Source: Pirellulales bacterium
GTDB taxonomy: Bacteria; Planctomycetota; Planctomycetia; Pirellulales; PNKZ01
Direction of reading: 5' to 3'
Assembly: GCA_036272935.1 (NCBI GenBank)
Contig: DATAXP010000075.1
Location: forward strand, 20,511 to 84,510
DNA length: 64,000 nucleotides
The notes under the pieces were generated by a model, which was given only the letters and a program-made list of their open reading frames with translations, made no database searches and was not told the origin of the DNA. The position numbers and the translations under genes were made by a program. Of the stretch, positions 4,184-50,566 are shown piece after piece; positions within the stretch are counted from its first letter, which is position 1; each line of letters opens with the position of its first letter.

Positions 4184-5002
4184 ATGCTTATCAAGACTGG
4201 CTTCGAACTGATTTTCAACACGCCCGCGCCGACCGTGATGCTCGCAATGCTGTTCGTGCATCCCGATCGCACGCATACCCTGGCCGAGCCCGAGCGGCTG
4301 ACCACCGAACCCGAACTCCCCCGCGATGAGTTCATCGACAGCTTCGGCAATCGCGTGGCCCGGCTGGTAACCGTGGCGGGGCGGAACCGCCTGTTCAGCG
4401 AAAGCGTGGTCGAAGATCACGGCCAGCCCGATGTGATTGTCCCCAACGCACCGCAGTTGCCGATCGAACAACTGCCGGTCGACGTGCTGCCGTTCTTGTT
4501 GAGCAGCCGCTACTGCGAGGTCGACAAAATGTCGGACATCGCCTGGCAGCTCTTCGGCAACACGCCTGGCGGCTGGCCGCGCGTGAAGGCCATTTGCGAT
4601 TGGGCGCATGGGCACGTCGAATTCGGTTACAAGTATGCGCGCGTGACCAAAAGCGCCCACGACGTGTACGAAGAGCGCAAAGGCGTGTGCCGCGACTTCA
4701 CCCACCTGGCAATCACGCTTTGCCGGTGCATGAACATTCCCGCACGCTACGCAACCGGCTATCTTGGCGATATTGGCGTCCCCGTGGCGCCCGATCCCAT
4801 GGACTTCAGCGCCTGGTTCGAGGTGTATCTGGGGGACCGTTGGTACACGTTCGACGCGCGGCATAACAAGCCGCGCATCGGCAGGATTGTGATGGCACGA
4901 GGCCGCGACGCCGTCGATACGGCACTGACCACGTCGTTTGGACCGGCACAGTTGCTGTCGTTCAAGGTGTGGACCGACGAACTGGTCGGGACCACCGCCT
5001 GA
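4184..5002 (+). CDS. transglutaminase-like family protein (short paralogue)
   Basis: GVCRDFTHLAITLCRCMNIPARYATGYL core. I prefer the ATG at 4184, which has AGGA 6 nt upstream, over the TTG at 4163. The canonical HAW His position reads SAW (see findings). Confidence 0.8.
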   Translation: MLIKTGFELIFNTPAPTVMLAMLFVHPDRTHTLAEPERLTTEPELPRDEFIDSFGNRVARLVTVAGRNRLFSESVVEDHGQPDVIVPNAPQLPIEQLPVDVLPFLLSSRYCEVDKMSDIAWQLFGNTPGGWPRVKAICDWAHGHVEFGYKYARVTKSAHDVYEERKGVCRDFTHLAITLCRCMNIPARYATGYLGDIGVPVAPDPMDFSAWFEVYLGDRWYTFDARHNKPRIGRIVMARGRDAVDTALTTSFGPAQLLSFKVWTDELVGTTA

Positions 5003-5076
5003 ACCACGGCAAAAGGAGAGACCGCTGCGACCATCTATTGCTCCCGTTCATGTGCGAACCAGGTAGGGTTTGACCG

Positions 5077-6600
5077 ATGGCAACGCAGAATGCGGCCATG
5101 AGCGACGATCGAACTGCTGCGCATCCGTTCGAAGGCTACGAACTGGGGCTGGCATTCGATGAAATGTTCGAATCGACCGGCAGCCCGCGCCGGCACTATC
5201 GGCCGCTGTACCAACGGCTGCTCGGGCTAAGCGCCGACGAAATCCGCCGCCGCAAGGCGATGTCGGACCTGTCGATGTTGCAGCACGGCGTGGGCTTCAC
5301 GGTGTATCGGCAAGAGGAAGGGATCGAGCGCGTGTGGCCGATGGACCCCGTGCCGCGGATCCTGCCGGCCGAGGAATGGGCTTGGATCGAACAAGGGCTG
5401 ATTCAGCGGATCACGGCGCTCAACCTGTTTCTGCACGACATCTATCACCAGCAGTTTATCCTGCGCGATCGGGTGCTCGACGCCGGCCTGATTTACGACG
5501 GCACGTTCTTCCGCCGCGAGTTCATGGGGGCCACCGTCCCGCGCGACATCTACATCCACGTCTGCGGGAGCGACCTGATCCGCGACCGTGACGGCAGCTA
5601 CCTGGTACTCGAAGACAACTGTCGCACCCCATCGGGCGTCAGCTACATGCTGCAAAACCGGCAAGTGCTGAAGCGCGTCTTCCCGCAAATCTTCGATCAC
5701 TACAACGTCCGCGCGACCGACGATTATCCAGCGGCCCTGTTGGACGTGCTGCGCTACTTGGCCCCCGGCGGCCGCCACGATCCGACGATCGTGCTGCTCA
5801 GCCCCGGCATCTACAACTCGGCGTACTTCGAGCACACATTCCTGGCGCAGCGCATGGGGATTGAGTTGGTCGAAGGGCGCGACCTGGTGGTCGACCAGAA
5901 CCGGGTGTACATGCGCACCACCCGGGGACTGGCGCGCGTCGATGTCATTTATCGCCGCGTCGACGACGACTTCCTCGATCCGCTGACGTTCCGGGCCGAT
6001 ACTTGCCTGGGCGTGCCGGGGCTCGTGAATGCGTATCGCGCCGGCAACGTCGCCTTGGCCAACAGTATCGGGACTGGGATCGCCGATGATAAAGGCATTT
6101 ACCCGTTCGTTCCCGAGATGATCCGCTACTACCTGAAGCAGGAGCCGATCCTGCCAAATGTCGAGACGTTCCGTCCGCAGATTGCGAGCCACCGCAGCCA
6201 CGTACTGGAAAACCTCGATCGGCTGGTGGTGAAGACGGTGAACGAATCGGGAGGTTCGGGGATGCTGATCGGTCCGGCCTCGACCGCCGCCCAGCGGGAA
6301 GAATTCGCGGCGCTGATCAAGGCCCGGCCGCGCGATTTTATCGCTCAGCCGACCGTGCAGCTTTCGGTCCATCCGACATTCGTTGACGGCCGGCTCGAAG
6401 GACGGCATGTCGACCTGCGGCCATTCGTGCTCTATGGCGAGCGCGTCACCGTCATCCCTGGCGCCTTGACGCGCGTGGCGCTGCGCCGCGGCAGCCTCGT
6501 CGTGAACAGCTCGCAAGGAGGCGGCAGCAAAGATACCTGGGTGCTGGCCGACGAGCGGGCGGCCGACAGTGTTCCCGTCGTCACAATTCCCTCAACGTAA
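5077..6600 (+). CDS. circularly permuted ATP-grasp type 2 protein (COG2308-like amidoligase)
   Basis: 507 aa, with the family-typical length and N-terminus (YDEMF-like [20 protein letters not shown]) and [17 protein letters not shown]. It is followed 18 nt later by an alpha-E gene, the conserved partner. Confidence 0.8.
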
Positions 6601-43697: not shown

Positions 43698-45440
43698 ATG
43701 CTGCGGGCAACAAACCTCCGCACCACGTTGATCGCTACGTTGCTTGAATTTGCTTTCGCGCTCGCCCCGGGCCGAGGGTTCGCCGCCGAGATGGCCGACG
43801 CGATCTATCACGGTGGCGAGATTGTCACGGTCGATGACCGCCAGCCGACGGCCCAGGCACTGGCGGTGCACGATGGCAAGATTCTCGCGGTCGGCTCGCT
43901 AGACGACGTGATGAAGCTGCGCGGCTCCGAGACGCACGTCGTCGACCTTGCCGGCAAGGCGCTCTTGCCAGGGTTCATCGATCCGCATTCGCACTACGCA
44001 ATGGCATTGGTCATTGCCGACGAGTGCAAGCTGTTCGCTCCGCCGTCGGGGCCGGGCAAGGACGTCGACAGCATGATCGCCGCGCTCAAGCAATTCGCTG
44101 CCGATCGGAAGATCGCACCCGGTGAAGAGATTATCGGCTACGGCTACGACGACACCGTGATGCCCCAGGGACGGCTGCTGAATCGCGACGACCTCGACGC
44201 AGCGTTTCCAAACAACCCAGTGCGCGTCGATCACGTGTCGATGCACGGCACGGTGCTCAACAGCCTGGCGATGCAGCAGTACGGCTTCAGTGCCGAGACC
44301 AAGGCTCCGCCGGGTGGCGTGATCGTCCGCAAGCCCGGCACGAACGAGCCGTGGGGCCTGATCATGGAGACGGCGTTCCTGCCGATTCTGGAACAGACGC
44401 CGCGGATGACCGAGCAGCAGGAAATCGCGGCGACCAAGGCGGGGCAGTGGCTATATGCCGAGGCGGGCATCACCACGGCCCACGAAGGGCTCACCAACCT
44501 GGCGCAACTAAGGATGATGAAGCGTGCCGCCGATGCCGGCATCCACACGATCGACGTGATCGCGTTTGCATCGATCTTCGAGCTGGACGAAATCGTTGCC
44601 GAGTTCCCCATCGCTGCGTGGGGCACGTACGACCAGGGGCTCAAGATCGGCGGCGTGAAGATCACGATCGATGGCTCGCCGCAAGGCCGCACCGCGGCCT
44701 TCACGACGCCGTATCTCACCGGTGGCCCGGGTGGCGAAAGGCCGTGGTCGGGCGAGCTAGCCGCTCCGAAGCAAACGATCGACGCGGCGGTCAAGCATGT
44801 CTACGACCTCGGCGTGCCGCTGAACCTGCACGCCAACGGTGATGCCGCGATCGACGCTTTCCTGCAGGCTCACGAGTACGCCGCCTCAGGCGATTTGGGG
44901 CGCGATCGCCGTGTGACGCTGATGCATGCCCAGTTCACGCGCAAGGACCAGATCGCCAAGTTCGTCGACTACAAGATCCGGCCGTCGTTCTACTCGCTGC
45001 ACACCTATTACTTTGCCGATGCGCACATCCGCAACCGCGGCGTAACCCAGGCGATGTACATCAGCCCCATGCGCGACGCGATCGACGCCGGCCTGCATCC
45101 GACGAACCATACCGACTTTGTCGTCGCACCGTTGGACCAGGCGATGGTGCTGTGGTCGGCCGTGAACCGCATTTCCCGGGCGGGCAATCGCATCGGCCCC
45201 GATCAGCGCATCACGCCGCTCGAAGCCCTGAAGGCAATCACCCTCTGGCCGGCCGAGCAATACGGTGAGCAGGATACGAAGGGCTCGCTCGCGCCCGGCA
45301 AGCGGGCCGACATGGTGATCCTCGACCGCAACCCGCTGGTATGCCCGCCGCTCGGGCTCAACGAGCTGTGCGTGCTCGAAACCATTAAGGATGGCCGCAC
45401 AATCTACGCGGCGGGCGCCGACACACCTTCGGCGCAATAG
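43698..45440 (+). CDS. secreted amidohydrolase-family (Amidohydro_3 / YtcJ-like) metal-dependent hydrolase
   Basis: Signal-like MLRATNLRTTLIATLLEFAFALAPGRGFAAE. GFIDPHSHY metal motif. HANGDAAID. 580 aa. Confidence 0.85.
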   Translation: MLRATNLRTTLIATLLEFAFALAPGRGFAAEMADAIYHGGEIVTVDDRQPTAQALAVHDGKILAVGSLDDVMKLRGSETHVVDLAGKALLPGFIDPHSHYAMALVIADECKLFAPPSGPGKDVDSMIAALKQFAADRKIAPGEEIIGYGYDDTVMPQGRLLNRDDLDAAFPNNPVRVDHVSMHGTVLNSLAMQQYGFSAETKAPPGGVIVRKPGTNEPWGLIMETAFLPILEQTPRMTEQQEIAATKAGQWLYAEAGITTAHEGLTNLAQLRMMKRAADAGIHTIDVIAFASIFELDEIVAEFPIAAWGTYDQGLKIGGVKITIDGSPQGRTAAFTTPYLTGGPGGERPWSGELAAPKQTIDAAVKHVYDLGVPLNLHANGDAAIDAFLQAHEYAASGDLGRDRRVTLMHAQFTRKDQIAKFVDYKIRPSFYSLHTYYFADAHIRNRGVTQAMYISPMRDAIDAGLHPTNHTDFVVAPLDQAMVLWSAVNRISRAGNRIGPDQRITPLEALKAITLWPAEQYGEQDTKGSLAPGKRADMVILDRNPLVCPPLGLNELCVLETIKDGRTIYAAGADTPSAQ

Positions 45441-45453
45441 CGCCTGCGGCGCA

Positions 45454-45548
45454 TTAGCCCCGGCCTCTGGTCGGGGGTGGTTTTGCGATCGCGCCCAGCG
45501 CATATTGTCATCGTGTCGAAACACCCCCGGGCAAAGCCCGGGGCTAAG
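45454..45548. repeat. REPIN-like doublet: two inverted copies of a roughly 25-nt REP (TTAGCCCCGGCCTCTGGTCGGGGG ... CCCCCGGGCAAAGCCCGGGGCTAAG)
   Basis: Each copy is an 8-bp CCCCGGsC hairpin with a 3-nt loop. The copies at 45454-45477 and 45524-45548 are reverse complements of each other apart from a few substitutions. Confidence 0.8.
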
Positions 45549-45569
45549 AACCTCACGAAAGAAATTGCA

Positions 45570-47522
45570 ATGCTGCCGATTCGAGTCGCGGTTGCGGTGA
45601 TTCTTGCGATCGCCGCGACTCAGTCGGCCTCCGCCGCAACGCTCTCGCCGGGACTGGGTCGATTCGAGGCAACGCACGCCGGCCGCTCGATTCCGGTTTG
45701 GTACTTCGTACCTGATGATGCCGGTGCCGATACGCCGGTGCTGATCGTGATGCACGGCGTCAACCGCGACGCCGATCGCTACCGCGACGAATGGGTGCCG
45801 CATGCCCGGCGGTATGGATTCATCGTGCTGGCTCCCGAGTTCTCGAAGGAAGCGTGGCCCGGCGAAGATCGCTACAACTCCGGCAACACGCTCGACGACC
45901 AGAGCCGCCCGCTGCCGCGCGAACAGTGGTCGTTCAGCTACATCGAACCGGTGTTCGATGCCGCGAAGAAATCGCTGGGCAATCGCACGAAGCAGTATTA
46001 CCTCTATGGGCACTCGGCTGGCGCGCAGTTCGTGCATCGGTTTTTGTATCACGTCCCCGAGGCCCGCGTCGCCAAGGCGGTGGCGGCCAACGCCGGCTGG
46101 TGGACGTTGCCCGATCCGGCGGTCGATTTTCCCTACGGCCTGCGCGGAAGTGCGGTCGATGTCGCCGATTTGAAGACGATGCTCGGCCGCCCACTCGTCG
46201 TGTTGCTCGGCACGGCCGACACCGATCCGAATCACAAGAACCTGCGCCGCACACCCGAGGCGAACGCACAAGGTCCGCATCGCTTCGCGCGCGGACACAC
46301 CTTCTACGAAGCAGGGCAGAAACGGGCGGCGGCGCTCGGCGTCCCGCTTCACTGGCAGCTTGCCACCGCGCCGGGCGTGGGCCACAGCGACAGCGGCATG
46401 TCGGTATACGCCGTGCGACATCTGTTCGGCCAGCCCAAGATTATCAGCCGCAGCCCCGACCGGGTGCGCATCCTATTCGGCGGCGACACCAGCGGCGGCG
46501 AGAGTTACCAGGACCAGTACGCCCAGCAAGGCCAAACCAACGTGCTCATCGAAAAAGGCTACGAGCACGGCACCGTGCAGCTCGATCGGTTGCTGGCTGC
46601 GGCCGACTACCGGGTGATCAATCTCGAAACGCCGTTGACCGCGCGTCGCGATAGTCCGCTCAAGGGGAAGGACTATCTGCACTACAGCGACCCGGTGAAG
46701 GTGCCGGCGCTGTTCAGCAAGTTCGGGCGCACGGCATTCTCGCTGGCGAACAATCACACGCTCGATTTCGGCCCCGAGGGGCTCGACGACACGCGTGCCG
46801 CGCTGGCCGCGGCTGAGGCCGATTGGTTCGGCGGCGGCGAGAACCTGCGTGAGGCGGCGAAGCCGCTGGTGCAAGAATTCCAATTAGGCAAGCAATCGCT
46901 GACGCTCGCGATCTTCGGCACGTTTGAATACCGCCAGGATTACGACCGCGATTTTCACTTCTACGCGAGCGCCGATCGCCCCGGCACCGCGCCGATCGAC
47001 CTGGCCGCCGTGCGACAAGCGATTGCGGAACTTCGCAAGACGTCGCCACAAGCGTTTGTCGTGTACTTCGTGCATTGGGGCGGCAACTATGCCTGGAAAA
47101 CCGACGAGCAGACGGCACTCGCGCGCGACCTGCGCAATGCGGACGTGGACTTGATCGTCGGCCATGGCGCGCACATGCTGCAAGAAGTTGAGCACGACGG
47201 CCGGAGTTGGACCTTCTACAGCATCGGCAATTTTCTGTTCAACGCGCGTGGCCGCTACGCGGCGCACAACGCACCACCCTATAGCCTGCCATTGCTCGTC
47301 GATCTGTCGCTCGTCGACGGGAGGGTGCAGCCAATGGTGCGCGCCTATCCGATCGTCAGCGACAACCAGGCCACCGGCTACCAACCGCGCTTCGTCACCG
47401 ACGAAGAGCTGACGCAGATCGAAACACTGCTGGCCGAGAAGAGCGCCTGGAGCCCGCAAACCCGCGCCGCCATCAAGCGCGGCGCCGACGATTGCGGCCG
47501 GTACTTGCAATGCGATATGTAG
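45570..47522 (+). CDS. secreted fusion protein: alpha/beta-hydrolase (PHB-depolymerase-type esterase) N-domain plus CapA/PGA_cap metallophosphatase-like C-domain
   Basis: The ATG at 45570 gives MLPIRVAVAVILAIAATQSASA. Esterase nucleophile elbow LYGHSAGAQF. C-terminal half VINLETPLT, SLANNHTLDFG, VHWGGNY, IVGHGAHMLQ. Confidence 0.8.
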   Translation: MLPIRVAVAVILAIAATQSASAATLSPGLGRFEATHAGRSIPVWYFVPDDAGADTPVLIVMHGVNRDADRYRDEWVPHARRYGFIVLAPEFSKEAWPGEDRYNSGNTLDDQSRPLPREQWSFSYIEPVFDAAKKSLGNRTKQYYLYGHSAGAQFVHRFLYHVPEARVAKAVAANAGWWTLPDPAVDFPYGLRGSAVDVADLKTMLGRPLVVLLGTADTDPNHKNLRRTPEANAQGPHRFARGHTFYEAGQKRAAALGVPLHWQLATAPGVGHSDSGMSVYAVRHLFGQPKIISRSPDRVRILFGGDTSGGESYQDQYAQQGQTNVLIEKGYEHGTVQLDRLLAAADYRVINLETPLTARRDSPLKGKDYLHYSDPVKVPALFSKFGRTAFSLANNHTLDFGPEGLDDTRAALAAAEADWFGGGENLREAAKPLVQEFQLGKQSLTLAIFGTFEYRQDYDRDFHFYASADRPGTAPIDLAAVRQAIAELRKTSPQAFVVYFVHWGGNYAWKTDEQTALARDLRNADVDLIVGHGAHMLQEVEHDGRSWTFYSIGNFLFNARGRYAAHNAPPYSLPLLVDLSLVDGRVQPMVRAYPIVSDNQATGYQPRFVTDEELTQIETLLAEKSAWSPQTRAAIKRGADDCGRYLQCDM

Positions 47523-47594
47523 CCCCGGGCTCTGCCCGGGGGCAGTTAACCGTGACCACGCACAATTGGCCCCCGGCCAAAGACCGGGGCTAAC
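47519..47594. repeat. second REPIN-like doublet of the same REP family (GTAGCCCCGGGCTCTGCCCGGGGG ... CCCCCGGCCAAAGACCGGGGCTAAC)
   Basis: Copies at 47519-47545 and 47568-47594. The first begins with the canonical GTAG and overlaps the stop codon of the upstream gene. Confidence 0.8.
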
Positions 47595-48080
47595 GACCGC
47601 TATGGGGTACGAGGACGGCGCTGGCGTATCGCACGCCGCGTGCAGTGTACCGCGAGGGGTCGAATGGCCGATGAACATCTTGGGCCGCAAAATTTCTGGC
47701 TGCGCCAGACTGACACAGCAACCCACGACCACCAGCAACACGTAACCAGCCACTGCGGCCGCGCGAGACCTGTGAGGGGTCTCACGGGCCGCTGGCACAA
47801 CAACCCTGCATCTTATTCAACGCCCAAAAGCGCCCAACACTTGGGGTCCACCTCACTCTTAAGAGCATTCCTTTGTCGCTACAGGCTGCACAACCGTCAT
47901 GCGCTGATGACGCACGGGCAAAATGCCGCAATTGAAATTGAGTGATGAGGGGGGGACAGGTCTTCCCGGTGAGCCGGTTGACCGAAGCGAGCGCAGCGCG
48001 TGCTAATATTCCATAGCCATGCTTTACATTAGGCGATACGGCCACAACACGCTAGCCAATAAGCCATTTGCATCGAGATT

Positions 48081-48815
48081 ATGGATTCAACTGCGATGCG
48101 ATTGGTCGTGCTGACGGAAGCGCACTGGATTGTCGGAACATTCCCCACTGGCGGACAGCGGCTCTTAGACCTGTTGAATTCAGCGCATAGCGAGTTTTTG
48201 TTGCTGAGCGATGTGCGACTTCAGGAGCGCTTTGCGGGGTCAACGACTCGGATCGGCAAAGCCACCATCCGCAAATCACAGATCGTCGTCGCCACGCCCG
48301 CGGCCGACCGGCACGAAGCGCCTGAAAAGCGTAGAAATGCTCTGTCTTCGAAGCGGGTAGGATCCGCCCACCTCGTTGTCGCGAATGCCCACTTGCGAGG
48401 CAAGGTCCATCTTCGCGGACACAACGACTCATTCCACGCGCTTGTTCATGAATTGGGAGACTTTTTTCCGGTCACTGAGGCCACGCTCGTCGAGGCAATC
48501 CCGCTGCTGCCGATCGAGTTGGCCGTCGCCATCGTGAACAAATCGTTTGTCAGTGTTTTCAGCGTGGGCAACGAAACCGTAGACCCGGCATCGACCGCGT
48601 GCCTCGAGACTCAGACTGCGGATTCGATCCACGACGTCGAATCGCGGATCGAATCAGCGCTTCACGAAATCAGCCGGCTCGTCGGCGACCGTTGGGTAAG
48701 TCGCGAAGAATCGCAAGCACCGCTTTTCGGCGGCGACGTGCTGCCGGTGCATGTTGGCTCCTGCCGCTCGGCAGGGAGCACCACGCCTTCCCCCACAGCG
48801 ATCAAGCCGCGGTAG
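48081..48815 (+). CDS. hypothetical protein with an internal tandem duplication of a roughly 70-aa module
   Basis: Module 1 is RLVVLTEAHWIVGTFPTGGQRLLDLLNSAHSEFLLLSDV...ATIRKSQIVVATP. Module 2 is AHLVVANAHLRGKVHLRGHNDSFHALVHELGDFFPVTEA...VAIVNKSFVSVFSV. The region has lower GC. The C-terminal roughly 70 aa are of doubtful coding quality. Confidence 0.5.
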   Translation: MDSTAMRLVVLTEAHWIVGTFPTGGQRLLDLLNSAHSEFLLLSDVRLQERFAGSTTRIGKATIRKSQIVVATPAADRHEAPEKRRNALSSKRVGSAHLVVANAHLRGKVHLRGHNDSFHALVHELGDFFPVTEATLVEAIPLLPIELAVAIVNKSFVSVFSVGNETVDPASTACLETQTADSIHDVESRIESALHEISRLVGDRWVSREESQAPLFGGDVLPVHVGSCRSAGSTTPSPTAIKPR

Positions 48816-48885
48816 GAGTCATCAGCCGCGCCGGTGATCGTGATCGCCGGGCGGGGGAACTCCATCCCCAACTTTCGCGACCCTT

Positions 48886-49257
48886 GTGGGCCTGGTTTGG
48901 CCGAAATCGTCACGAGCGAAAATCAGTCCGCTTCTGAAGGGCATCAAGCAACCGTTTTCCAATCGCGTCCGCCAAACGCTTGAAGAGGGGGGTGATCCAT
49001 TGATGAAGCAGCTCACGATTCCTGAGCGGCCGGGCAAGGACGCATTTCGATTCTGGCAAGAAGGGGGTGGCTACGACCGCAACCTGACGACGTCGAAAGC
49101 GGCTTATTCGGTCATTGATTACCTTCACTTGAACCCGGTTCGTCGTGGCTTGGTCGAGCACCCGAGACAGTGGAAATGGTCGAGCTTTCGGTACTACGAA
49201 TCTGATGGCATGCACGTCGAGCCGGATACGCCGAGGATCGACCCGCTGCCACAGTAG
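48886..49257 (+). mobile_element. remnant of a RayT / IS200-like Y1 (HUH) transposase: C-terminal part only, HUH-motif region absent
   Basis: LVWPKSSRAKISPLLKGIKQPFSNRV...FRFWQEGGGYDRNL...VIDYLHLNPVRRGLVEHPRQWKWSSFRYY matches the C-terminal two thirds of REP-associated tyrosine transposases. Stops in this frame at 48835 and 48841, and no HxH in any frame upstream. Confidence 0.7.
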
Positions 49258-49290
49258 TTTTGGGATGCTCGTTAGCTCAAGCCACAAAAG

Positions 49291-49340
49291 CACTGGCTGG
49301 CAAGCAGCCAGTGGCACCCGGCAGGCAGCCAGTGGGAACC
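49291..49340. repeat. repeat copy A: CACTGGCTG-GCAAG-CAGCCAGTG hairpin plus GCACCCGGCAGGCAGCCAGTGGGAACC
   Basis: Perfect 9-bp stem. The first 32 nt match 50502-50533 at 31 of 32 positions, in direct orientation. Confidence 0.8.
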
Positions 49341-49343
49341 AAG

Positions 49344-49874
49344 TCACGACTTTCGCTTGAGTTCGAAGACAACGTTTCCCGAGGGCTTTCCGTCGTTGTA
49401 ATGCGTCCACTCGCTGCGCAAGGTGTCCTTGTCGACGAACGTGTAGGTGACGTCGTGCATGTACATGTCCTTGTCGGACCCCAGATTCGTCGCCCGCACG
49501 AACTTGAACGCGACTGTTTTGCTTTTCCCGTCGCCGGGGGCCTTCATTTGGGGCTGGTTGCCGAGCATGCAGTAATGCGTGAGTACCAAGTCGGGACCGT
49601 CGCCGTGAATCACGGTGACCATCTCGTGATCGGTACCCGGAGAGATTGTCTCGACCACCGCGCTTCCGCCGGCGGTCACCTTGTAGTTGACGGTGAACTC
49701 CTTTTCGTCCCCGCCAACCTGTTTCGCCACCCAGTCGCCGGTCAAGGCCTTGAACGCATCGAGACCCGGGCAGCTTGCGACGGTCGGATGATGCTCATCG
49801 GCGCCGCGAGCCTCCATCACTCCTGCGGCAAGCAATGCGAGCACCAGGCAACCGAGCGATGTTCGAGACTGCAT
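49344..49874 (-). CDS. secreted small beta-rich protein (DUF1579-like from memory; needs HMM confirmation)
   Basis: The ATG at complement 49872-49874 has GGAGGA upstream and gives MQSRTSLGCLVLALLAAGVMEARG. LTGDWVAK...THYCMLGNQPQM...FELKR. Confidence 0.7.
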   Translation of the reverse strand: MQSRTSLGCLVLALLAAGVMEARGADEHHPTVASCPGLDAFKALTGDWVAKQVGGDEKEFTVNYKVTAGGSAVVETISPGTDHEMVTVIHGDGPDLVLTHYCMLGNQPQMKAPGDGKSKTVAFKFVRATNLGSDKDMYMHDVTYTFVDKDTLRSEWTHYNDGKPSGNVVFELKRKS

Positions 49875-50464: not shown

Positions 50465-50501
50465 TTCAGCACTACGACTGGTTAATCGACGACTTATAAC
50501 G

Positions 50502-50566
50502 CACTGGCGGGCAAGCAGCCAGTGGCACCCGGCCGCCAGCAGATCGGCTACACTGGCGGGCCGGGG
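50502..50566. repeat. repeat copy B: CACTGGCGGGCAAGCAGCCAGTGGCACCCGGCC... plus a second hairpin CCGGCCGCCAG...CTGGCGGGCCGG
   Basis: Direct repeat of 49291-49322. CACTGGCGGGC recurs at 50551-50561. Confidence 0.8.

Follow-up and report, generated by a model that had tools for sequence, protein, structure and literature searches.

Introduction

Repetitive extragenic palindromes (REPs) tagged by the tetranucleotide GTAG are known from many phyla, where, according to Di Nocera 2013 (PMC3733652), they mostly form head-to-head (HH) dimers 20-100 bp apart and are associated with repeat-specific tyrosine transposases in units termed "REPtrons". The same study describes the families GTAG-20, GTAG-21 and GTAG-22 of Rhodopirellula baltica, and REP systems in Planctomycetes are thus already known. 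Among the TnpA-Y1 transposases, class 3 is reported mainly from Planctomycetes and Acidobacteria and is characterized by abundant flanking hairpins, an NHVH motif, a Y----Q motif and a CnGA foot (Quentin 2018, PMC6006769). Here we compare with these systems a stretch of 64,000 nucleotides from a Pirellulales bacterium (Planctomycetota; GenBank assembly GCA_036272935.1, contig DATAXP010000075.1, positions 20,511 to 84,510 of the forward strand), hereinafter the window, whose numbering we use throughout unless another locus is named. An original prediction made from these letters had pointed to a G+C-rich hairpin element on either side of an esterase gene and to a decayed REP-associated tyrosine transposase (RAYT; RayT in the names used here) downstream of it. 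It considered a REP/RayT system in a planctomycete worth documenting; such systems are already on record through the accounts of R. baltica and of the class 3 enzymes. We name the element, TAGCCCCGGnCTyTGnnCGGGGG, REP-A.

We propose, with a probability of roughly 0.8, that the four REP-A hairpins of the window constitute two inverted REP doublets (REPINs) of a planctomycete REP-A family, whose partner is a clade of small HUH/Tyr proteins named RayT-A below, and that the nearby transposase remnant is the dead core of an independent REPtron.

Four REP-A hairpins and two doublets in the window

The window contains four REP-A copies, arranged as two pairs around a single gene:

45454-45477, + strand: REP-A copy 1, TTAG-CCCCGGCC-TCT-GGTCGGGG-G; stem with one G-T pair
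45524-45548, - strand: REP-A copy 2, TTAG-CCCCGGGC-TTT-GCCCGGGG-G; perfect 8-bp stem; -10.6 kcal/mol, z = -3.6
45454-45548: REP-A doublet 1, convergent, feet outward, 46-nt spacer; 29-nt arms, 83% complementary
45570-47522, + strand: flanked gene, an N-terminal polyhydroxybutyrate (PHB)-depolymerase-like esterase fused to a PGA_cap (CapA-like) domain, with a signal-peptide-like N-terminus
47519-47543, + strand: REP-A copy 3, GTAG-CCCCGGGC-TCT-GCCCGGGG-G; perfect 8-bp stem
47569-47594, - strand: REP-A copy 4, TTAG-CCCCGGTC-TTT-GGCCGGGG-G; stem with one T-G pair
47519-47594: REP-A doublet 2, convergent, feet outward, 27-nt spacer

These four, with cores at 45455-45477, 45524-45546, 47520-47542 and 47570-47592, are all that a degenerate 22-nt pattern with up to three mismatches recovers from the 64 kb, against a chance expectation of 0.08 copies per window in 100 dinucleotide shuffles, none of which reached four copies. 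The count and placement of the predicted element of about 25 nt are thereby confirmed, and direct inspection likewise agrees with the description of two inverted pairs adjoining the gene 45570-47522, one on each side, and of a GTAG foot in the copy at 47519 with TTAG in the other three. The 8-bp stem and 3-nt loop ascribed to every copy are perfect in copies 2 and 3, copies 1 and 4 each having one G-T mismatch. When folded as single-stranded DNA (ssDNA), copies 1-3 reach -8 to -11 kcal/mol (z = -2.9 to -3.6 versus shuffles), and copy 4 shows no improvement over its shuffles (z = -0.86). Each doublet taken whole folds into a long imperfect hairpin, with -29.1 kcal/mol (z = -4.25) for doublet 1 and -23.6 kcal/mol (z = -3.74) for doublet 2.

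All four copies are extragenic, save for a stop codon shared by copy 3, whose TAG terminates the 45570-47522 gene. An Amidohydro_3 gene (43698-45440) is separated from the esterase/PGA_cap gene by 129 nt, the greater part of which is taken up by doublet 1; the doublet starts 14 nt past the amidohydrolase stop and ends 22 nt ahead of the ATG at 45570. No convincing similarity was found between the two window spacers. Since their arms are degenerate and their spacers unrelated, the window doublets look old, and they are probably older members of the REP-A doublet population found in other genomes.

A fifth occurrence of the 9-mer TAGCCCCGG, at position 916, was rejected as a REP-A copy; it sits in repetitive coding sequence. 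The region concerned (860-1040) consists of highly repetitive GTAGCC/GTAGCCGCC-like sequence, the reverse strand of which would encode a Gly/Tyr-rich low-complexity protein.

REP-A as a dispersed planctomycete family

One genome per species, 596 Gb in total, was searched for exact matches to TAGCCCCGGNCTYTGNNCGGGGG, in which 19 bases are specified. This yielded at least 118 matching stretches, as against a handful expected by chance on our own uniform-composition estimate; among the matches listed they come from 36 assemblies, almost all of them Planctomycetota. The hosts among these matches are Lacipirellula, including the cultured Lacipirellula limnantheis I41, other Pirellulales, and metagenome-assembled genomes (MAGs) of Phycisphaerae and Sedimentisphaerales. 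A few listed matches fall in MAGs labelled Thermoanaerobaculia or Deltaproteobacteria. In these, exact REP-A sequences were seen in the Thermoanaerobaculia MAGs L040, L043 and L045, the last with one doublet, and in the Deltaproteobacteria MAG L016 (L-numbers are our labels for fetched genome blocks or loci), and they could reflect mis-binned contigs, horizontal spread or a wider host range.

The 118 listed blocks, amounting to 823 kb, hold 215 REP-A copies at up to three mismatches. Where neighbouring copies lie within 150 nt of each other, 69 of the 77 pairs are arranged +/- with feet outward, the remainder being -/+ (4 pairs) and +/+ (4 pairs). This is the arrangement known as HH dimers or REPINs and bears out the inverted doublets of the original prediction. 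A further 65 copies are singlets. The doublet spacers range from 12 to 135 nt in length, with a mode at 39-46 nt. As lower bounds per genome, one Lacipirellula MAG has at least 45 copies in 15 blocks and another at least 25.

The REP-A unit comprises an N-T/C-A-G foot, an 8-bp G+C stem of the form CCCC[C/G]GGC and a 3-nt pyrimidine loop. Across the listed blocks and the window the foot reads TTAG in 77 copies, ATAG in 51, CTAG in 33 and GTAG in 28, such that only TAG is conserved. The preceding base is genome-specific and mirrored at the opposite end of the doublet: one Lacipirellula MAG has C there and a second has G, two lake MAGs have A, and several other genomes have T. These counts, together with the genome-specific first base, mean that GTAG is not the rule for REP-A, which removes the canonical status that had been claimed for the foot of the copy at 47519. 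We also considered whether the TAG foot preferentially serves as a stop codon. Open upstream frames of at least 100 codons precede it in 50 of 189 cases, versus 29 and 40 in control frames, an excess that is unconvincing in high-GC DNA, and the idea was dropped. In two blocks (L107, 3620-3680; L024, 1230-1350) some doublet spacers are filled with short arm-derived tandem repeats, namely four units of GTGTGCCCGGGG and arrays of CTTGGGGGCAAGA and CCCCGGACAT.

RayT-A, the candidate partner of REP-A

Searches of the REP-A-bearing blocks for relatives of the window's transposase remnant (tblastn and a family hidden Markov model, HMM) gave just weak hits, which led to the protein that we regard as the partner of REP-A. 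One HMM hit, in L087, is an open reading frame (ORF) of 160 aa that is precisely enclosed by REP-A elements, a doublet on one flank and a singlet together with a doublet on the opposite flank. It was the first member found of a clade of HUH/Tyr proteins of about 157 aa linked with REP-A, for which we use the name RayT-A. The L087 protein falls below the curated cutoffs of both relevant models (Pfam Y1_Tnp PF01797, E = 0.13, 12.8 bits versus 23; NCBIfam NF047646, E = 0.003, 17.5 bits versus 80), and most members of the clade have no precomputed Pfam hit. Database searches returned 289 and 228 homologues of about 150-170 aa, most of them annotated "hypothetical" and a few called RayT by the Joint Genome Institute (JGI). 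With homologues clustered at 50% identity, an exhaustive profile search retrieved 21 clusters whose E was <= 1e-30 and 498 whose E was <= 1e-10.

The association with the hairpins recurs at every RayT-A locus fetched. The RayT-A genes of L087 and L026 are flanked by REP-A, REP-A-type hairpins stand on both sides of the gene in L124-L127, and in L. limnantheis I41 (L208) REP-A brackets a frameshifted RayT-A gene located some 8 kb from dnaA. Among the 37 closest metagenome homologues, about 35 (by inspection) have, no more than 260 nt away, hairpins in which the stem measures 7-8 bp, the loop 3 nt, and the foot is NYAG. When hairpins are counted under a strict class definition, the DNA up to 300 nt from the RayT-A gene holds 3.4 per kb, as against 0.04 per kb at greater distances. 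The stem variants found around the gene differ by RayT-A lineage (CCCCGGGC, CCCCCGGC, CCCCCCGC, CACCGGGC and CCACCGGC), as is to be expected where a transposase and the DNA that it acts on co-vary. The feet around RayT-A genes vary further, for example TCAG and ACAG, and homologues at 26-33% identity to RayT-A are accompanied by hairpins with 4-nt loops and other feet.

The invariant motifs of the clade are W-H-x-H (HUH), R.K, W..GY and Y...H.G. An AlphaFold2 model of RayT-A (mean predicted local distance difference test score, pLDDT, 86.7) finds its best match in the Protein Data Bank (PDB) in 4ER8, the E. coli TnpA-REP bound to a REP hairpin (E = 3.5e-5, template modelling score, TM, 0.55), followed by the transposases of ISDra2, IS608 and IS200 (hits 2-30). 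A sequence-only profile search of the PDB was not significant (4ER8, E = 0.94), and it took the fold comparison to bring out the match. The notion of a REP/RayT system behind the window's repeats therefore holds, in that a Y1/HUH protein flanked by REP-A exists in related genomes; the part that fails is its pairing with the remnant downstream of the doublets.

Two RayT-A loci deserve a separate description. In L208 (CP036339, 9860-10340) the gene is split by a 1-nt frameshift after GSWLP, and the annotation gives it as a "transposase" of 111 aa; directly upstream is a DDE_Tnp_1 gene, with dnaA/dnaN/gyrB about 2-8 kb off. Either genuine decay or an error in sequencing could account for the frameshift. 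L026 contains a RayT-A paralogue flanked by a loop-variant hairpin, TAGCCCCCGGC-TGTTA-GCCGGGGG (4900-5010 and 5586-5708), and beside it a tandem array of about seven CCCCCGGCCAATTAG units, as if half-hairpins had been amplified.

How REP-A doublets are copied

The ends of 71 doublets were examined for traces of insertion. No target-site duplications were found at any of them, direct matches between flanks being no commoner than in shuffled-flank controls. The palindrome extends 1-5 nt past the TAG far oftener than in controls. The spacers carry a second signal: identity of at least 0.7 is seen in 23 of 285 within-genome pairs versus 11 of 990 between-genome pairs, and identity of at least 0.8 in six within-genome pairs versus a single between-genome pair, which is at an orthologous position. 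In one Lacipirellula MAG, one spacer is common to four loci at 77-83% identity and another to two other loci at 89%. As unlinked doublets of one genome have common spacers, the doublet including its spacer is the unit copied.

Such units, 75-95 bp long with inverted termini of 24-29 nt, have the outward appearance of miniature inverted-repeat transposable elements (MITEs) with terminal inverted repeats mobilized by a DDE-type transposase, and the DDE_Tnp_1 gene near the RayT-A locus of L208 could be cited in favor of this. We nevertheless hold a MITE origin to be extremely improbable: target-site duplications are lacking at all 71 doublets, the termini are hairpins in their own right, 65 units exist as singlets, and the gene consistently linked to them encodes a Y1/HUH and not a DDE protein. 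The spread of REP-A fits a Y1 enzyme, not a DDE enzyme.

The sister MAGs behind L087 (1481-2242) and L026 (333-465) offer a view of spacer change. They have a RayT-A locus in common, with an orthologous downstream doublet whose spacers differ between the two; the L026 downstream spacer is 91% identical to that of the L087 doublet on the other side of the RayT-A gene. This suggests recent turnover or gene conversion between doublets and is the one hint of mobility that the sequences give.

It is also conceivable that the hairpins are primarily RNA or DNA signals, such as bidirectional terminators, mRNA 3' stabilizers or protein-binding sites, and that their repetition reflects selection for that function. 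Both window doublets lie directly downstream of coding regions, copy 1 is followed by a T-rich tail and scores as terminator-like, and enterobacterial REPs are known to stabilize mRNA and bind proteins (background cited in PMC3733652). The remaining three copies have no T-run, and the region contains four terminator-like structures where shuffles give 2.2 +/- 1.6. Moreover, foot, loop and stem sequence are conserved across the 36 listed assemblies, a constraint that termination would not impose; spacers recur at unlinked loci of one genome; the hairpins are 90-fold denser around a Y1 transposase-like gene than in the surrounding DNA; and Rfam has no family for REP-A or for the REP-B hairpin introduced in the next section. 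A primary signalling function is thus unlikely in our estimate. A secondary role of the window doublets at the 3' ends of two co-directional genes, as mRNA 3' stabilizers or weak terminators, is a speculative addition to the interpretation of REP-A as a mobile doublet family.

The transposase remnant and REP-B

Downstream of doublet 2 the window contains a second set of REP-related features:

48886-49257, + strand: truncated REP-associated tyrosine transposase, RayT-B clade; NF047646 E = 1e-10, profile positions 68-146 of 146
49290-49313, + strand: REP-B copy, GCACTGGCTGGCAAGCAGCCAGTG then GCACCC; 33 nt past the remnant stop
50501-50524, + strand: second REP-B copy, GCACTGGCGGGCAAGCAGCCAGTG then GCACCC

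The original prediction took this remnant for the decayed RayT that had mobilized the REP-A doublets. The fragment is indeed a genuine piece of a REP-associated tyrosine transposase. It aligns to columns 78-198 of a 210-column full-length profile and retains FWQEGGGYDRN and YLHLNPVRRG; it begins immediately past the HUH motif, which it lacks, with about 67-77 N-terminal residues missing relative to full-length homologues of 190-200 aa, and stop codons occur in every frame upstream of it. A look-up of the remnant itself retrieved only a Logan contig of 1.5 kb. The intact RayT-B homologues, all five independent ones examined (L119, L120, L122, L210, which is Botrimarina hoheduenensis, and L211), have on both sides, within about 20-110 nt, a different hairpin that we name REP-B: a CACTG...CAGTG palindrome with a GGTGC/GCACC foot. 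Upstream of the RayT-B genes it reads GGTGC-CACTGGCAGC...GCTGCCAGTG, the downstream form ends in ...CAGTG-GCACC, and the stems co-vary by lineage (CACTGGCAGC, CACTGGTGGC and CACTGCTGGC). No REP-A was found near these five homologues within the 5-10 kb fetched.

The two window copies of REP-B, with the consensus GCACTGGCnGGCAAGCAGCCAGTG then GCACCC, stand in the same orientation 1.2 kb apart, and a partial extra arm, GGCAGGCAGCCAGTGGG, forms a REP-B half-site (49320-49334) directly after the first. On sequence grounds the copy at 49290 is likely the cognate hairpin of the remnant. Given that its homologues are flanked by REP-B and that REP-B is present in the window, the remnant is best read as what is left of the core of another family's REPtron, RayT-B plus REP-B, that has decayed. 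The proximity of remnant and REP-A doublets, 1.3 kb apart, and the authenticity of the fragment are what speak for their having been partners. We consider this very unlikely in view of the five REP-B-flanked homologues, the REP-B copies 33 nt past the remnant stop and at 50501, the lack of remnant relatives in the 823 kb of REP-A-bearing blocks, and the existence of a distantly related protein clade proper to REP-A. In a profile-profile comparison (hhalign), RayT-A and RayT-B align with a probability of 88% (E = 3e-6), the HUH and Tyr motifs falling in register; the clades are homologous, though remote from each other.

The surroundings of the remnant have their own peculiarities. The region 47600-49700 has a GC content of 0.56-0.61 versus 0.63-0.69 around it and comprises a non-coding region of about 490 nt, a hypothetical gene (48081-48815, + strand) with a weak DUF6812 match, a riboswitch and the remnant; its appearance is that of DNA that is foreign or in decay. 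The riboswitch is a full-length match to the fluoride family RF01734 at 48806-48878 on the minus strand (37.8 bits versus a gathering score of 34, E = 6e-8), situated in the 70 nt that separate the ORF 48081-48815 from the transposase remnant. Beyond it the minus strand offers no plausible gene: its ORFs are Arg-rich and spurious-looking, and a 117-aa ORF (48432..48079) has no Pfam hit. The riboswitch may be an orphan of the rearrangement in which the transposase gene was truncated.

The flanked gene

The gene between the doublets has clear domain matches (PF09587 at E = 1e-50, esterase models at E of about 1e-13) and an ordinary composition. The original prediction saw its symmetric flanking as noteworthy, and one may ask whether the two doublets and the intervening gene form a single cassette that is mobile or prone to recombination, in which the flanking REPINs deliver the gene or permit its excision. 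The sole two doublets in 64 kb do bracket one gene and are mutually inverted: doublet 2 has a GGGC arm followed by a GGYC arm, the reverse by arm type of doublet 1, and the inner copies 2 and 3 are 96% complementary. Several observations nonetheless render a cassette highly doubtful. The GC content of the gene, 0.63-0.65, is that of its neighbours. The geometry does not look REPtron-like: the feet point toward the gene (-, +), an arrangement seen at three of 16 RayT-A loci, the commonest there being feet away from the gene (+, -; eight of 16). Multiple doublets inside a few kb are common in other genomes (three in L028, three in L034, two in L058). Finally, the fetched loci include no orthologous locus of the flanked gene and no related locus from which the gene is missing. 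Two independent insertions into adjacent gaps are the simplest reading of the symmetric flanking.

Proposed mechanism and assessment

By analogy with the E. coli TnpA-REP and with the TnpA enzymes of IS200/IS605 insertion sequences (ISs), each REP-A unit would fold into a hairpin on single-stranded DNA. A RayT-A dimer could then bind the hairpin, read its foot and cleave beside the foot by means of the conserved tyrosine, upon which the doublet might be cut out or copied as a single unit and inserted anew with no duplication arising. In this manner a population of doublets would be kept up, served by a single-copy transposase gene.

Several points weigh against our interpretation of the window hairpins as members of a RayT-A-served REPIN family. 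Just four REP-A copies are visible in the window, two with stem mismatches, and their spacers are unrelated. No RayT-A gene is present in the 64 kb, nor is one of the source assembly (VHZ24) among the 240 listed homologues, which makes activity of REP-A in the source genome no more than putative. In L. limnantheis I41 the RayT-A gene is frameshifted. Hairpins on both sides were found at just 15 of 31 loci by the strict class, a narrow definition applied to many short contigs. Per-genome copy numbers are lower bounds, and the breadth of conservation is partly a matter of ascertainment, because a pattern search selects for the conserved core. Transposition by the RayT-A clade is itself proposed from the behaviour of TnpA-REP and the IS200/IS605 TnpA.

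More tentatively, and somewhat short of even odds, we suspect that REP-A/RayT-A represents a REPIN-RAYT lineage that had so far escaped classification, occurs widely among Planctomycetota (Pirellulales and Phycisphaerae) and has a transposase essentially invisible to Pfam. In the same tentative scheme the hairpin core would be almost invariant across classes, with foot base and stem variants tracking lineages, and the REP-A system would co-reside with REP-B/RayT-B in the same genomes. If true, REPIN populations of the long-lived, "domesticated" kind would have a second large example, one outside Proteobacteria that evolves independently.

Significance

In practical terms, intergenic G+C hairpin doublets of planctomycetes can be annotated as REP/REPIN and not as terminators or regulatory sites, and "hypothetical proteins" of about 157 aa bracketed by REP-A-type hairpins can be labelled RayT-like. 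The analysis adds a REP family defined by sequence, together with its partner clade, for a phylum from which Rhodopirellula baltica was the sole case described before. A further clear example is that of two neighbouring REP systems that each have a transposase of their own, which is useful for testing the specificity of RAYT-REP pairing and the persistence of REPIN populations.

Comparison with known systems

The proteobacterial REP/REPIN-RAYT systems, as typified by the REPs and bacterial interspersed mosaic elements (BIMEs) of E. coli with TnpA-REP (4ER8) and by the REPINs of Pseudomonas fluorescens (PMC3116915, PMC3337134), resemble REP-A in most structural respects. Both have a short G+C-rich hairpin preceded by an unpaired 5' foot ending in AG; in both, inverted doublets predominate, constitute the copied unit and leave no target-site duplications; and in both, a HUH/Tyr gene is flanked by its own hairpins, the predicted fold of RayT-A being nearest to TnpA-REP. 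They differ in the foot, which in REP-A is not GTAG but NTAG, the first base varying with the genome, and in the host phylum, Planctomycetota. At the protein level, RayT-A departs from canonical RAYTs in its Tyr motif, Y-[IV]-x-R-H-x-G versus YIHxNP, and in having W-T in place of W-Q.

The GTAG REPs of PMC3733652 are like REP-A in having 6-9-bp stems, short loops and mostly HH dimers. The REP-encoded peptides of R. baltica given there match neither REP-A nor REP-B, a family difference judged by the listed peptides; that REP-A coincides with some other family in that list is formally conceivable. In relation to the TnpA-Y1 classes of PMC6006769, RayT-A differs from class 3 by its WHxH motif, its YIxRHxG motif and the NYAG foot of its hairpins, and the family of the RayT-B remnant resembles class 2/RAYT, with HVH upstream in the homologues followed by WQ and Y-[IL]-H-x-N-P. 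A limited literature search found no published class matching RayT-A, and the supplements of PMC6006769 contain nothing on planctomycete hairpins.

To the IS200/IS605 TnpA of IS608 and ISDra2, RayT-A would be akin in its modelled HUH/Y1 fold, in a presumptive recognition of subterminal ssDNA hairpins and in the lack of target duplications. It is unlike them in that its gene is not obviously a multi-copy IS, and in that, as is typical of REP systems, hairpins are far more numerous than the gene and are also found where it is absent. No new kind of mechanism is opened by REP-A/RayT-A: with the REPtrons of PMC3733652 and the TnpA-Y1 classes of PMC6006769 already known, it constitutes a new sequence family and partner clade within a known kind of system.

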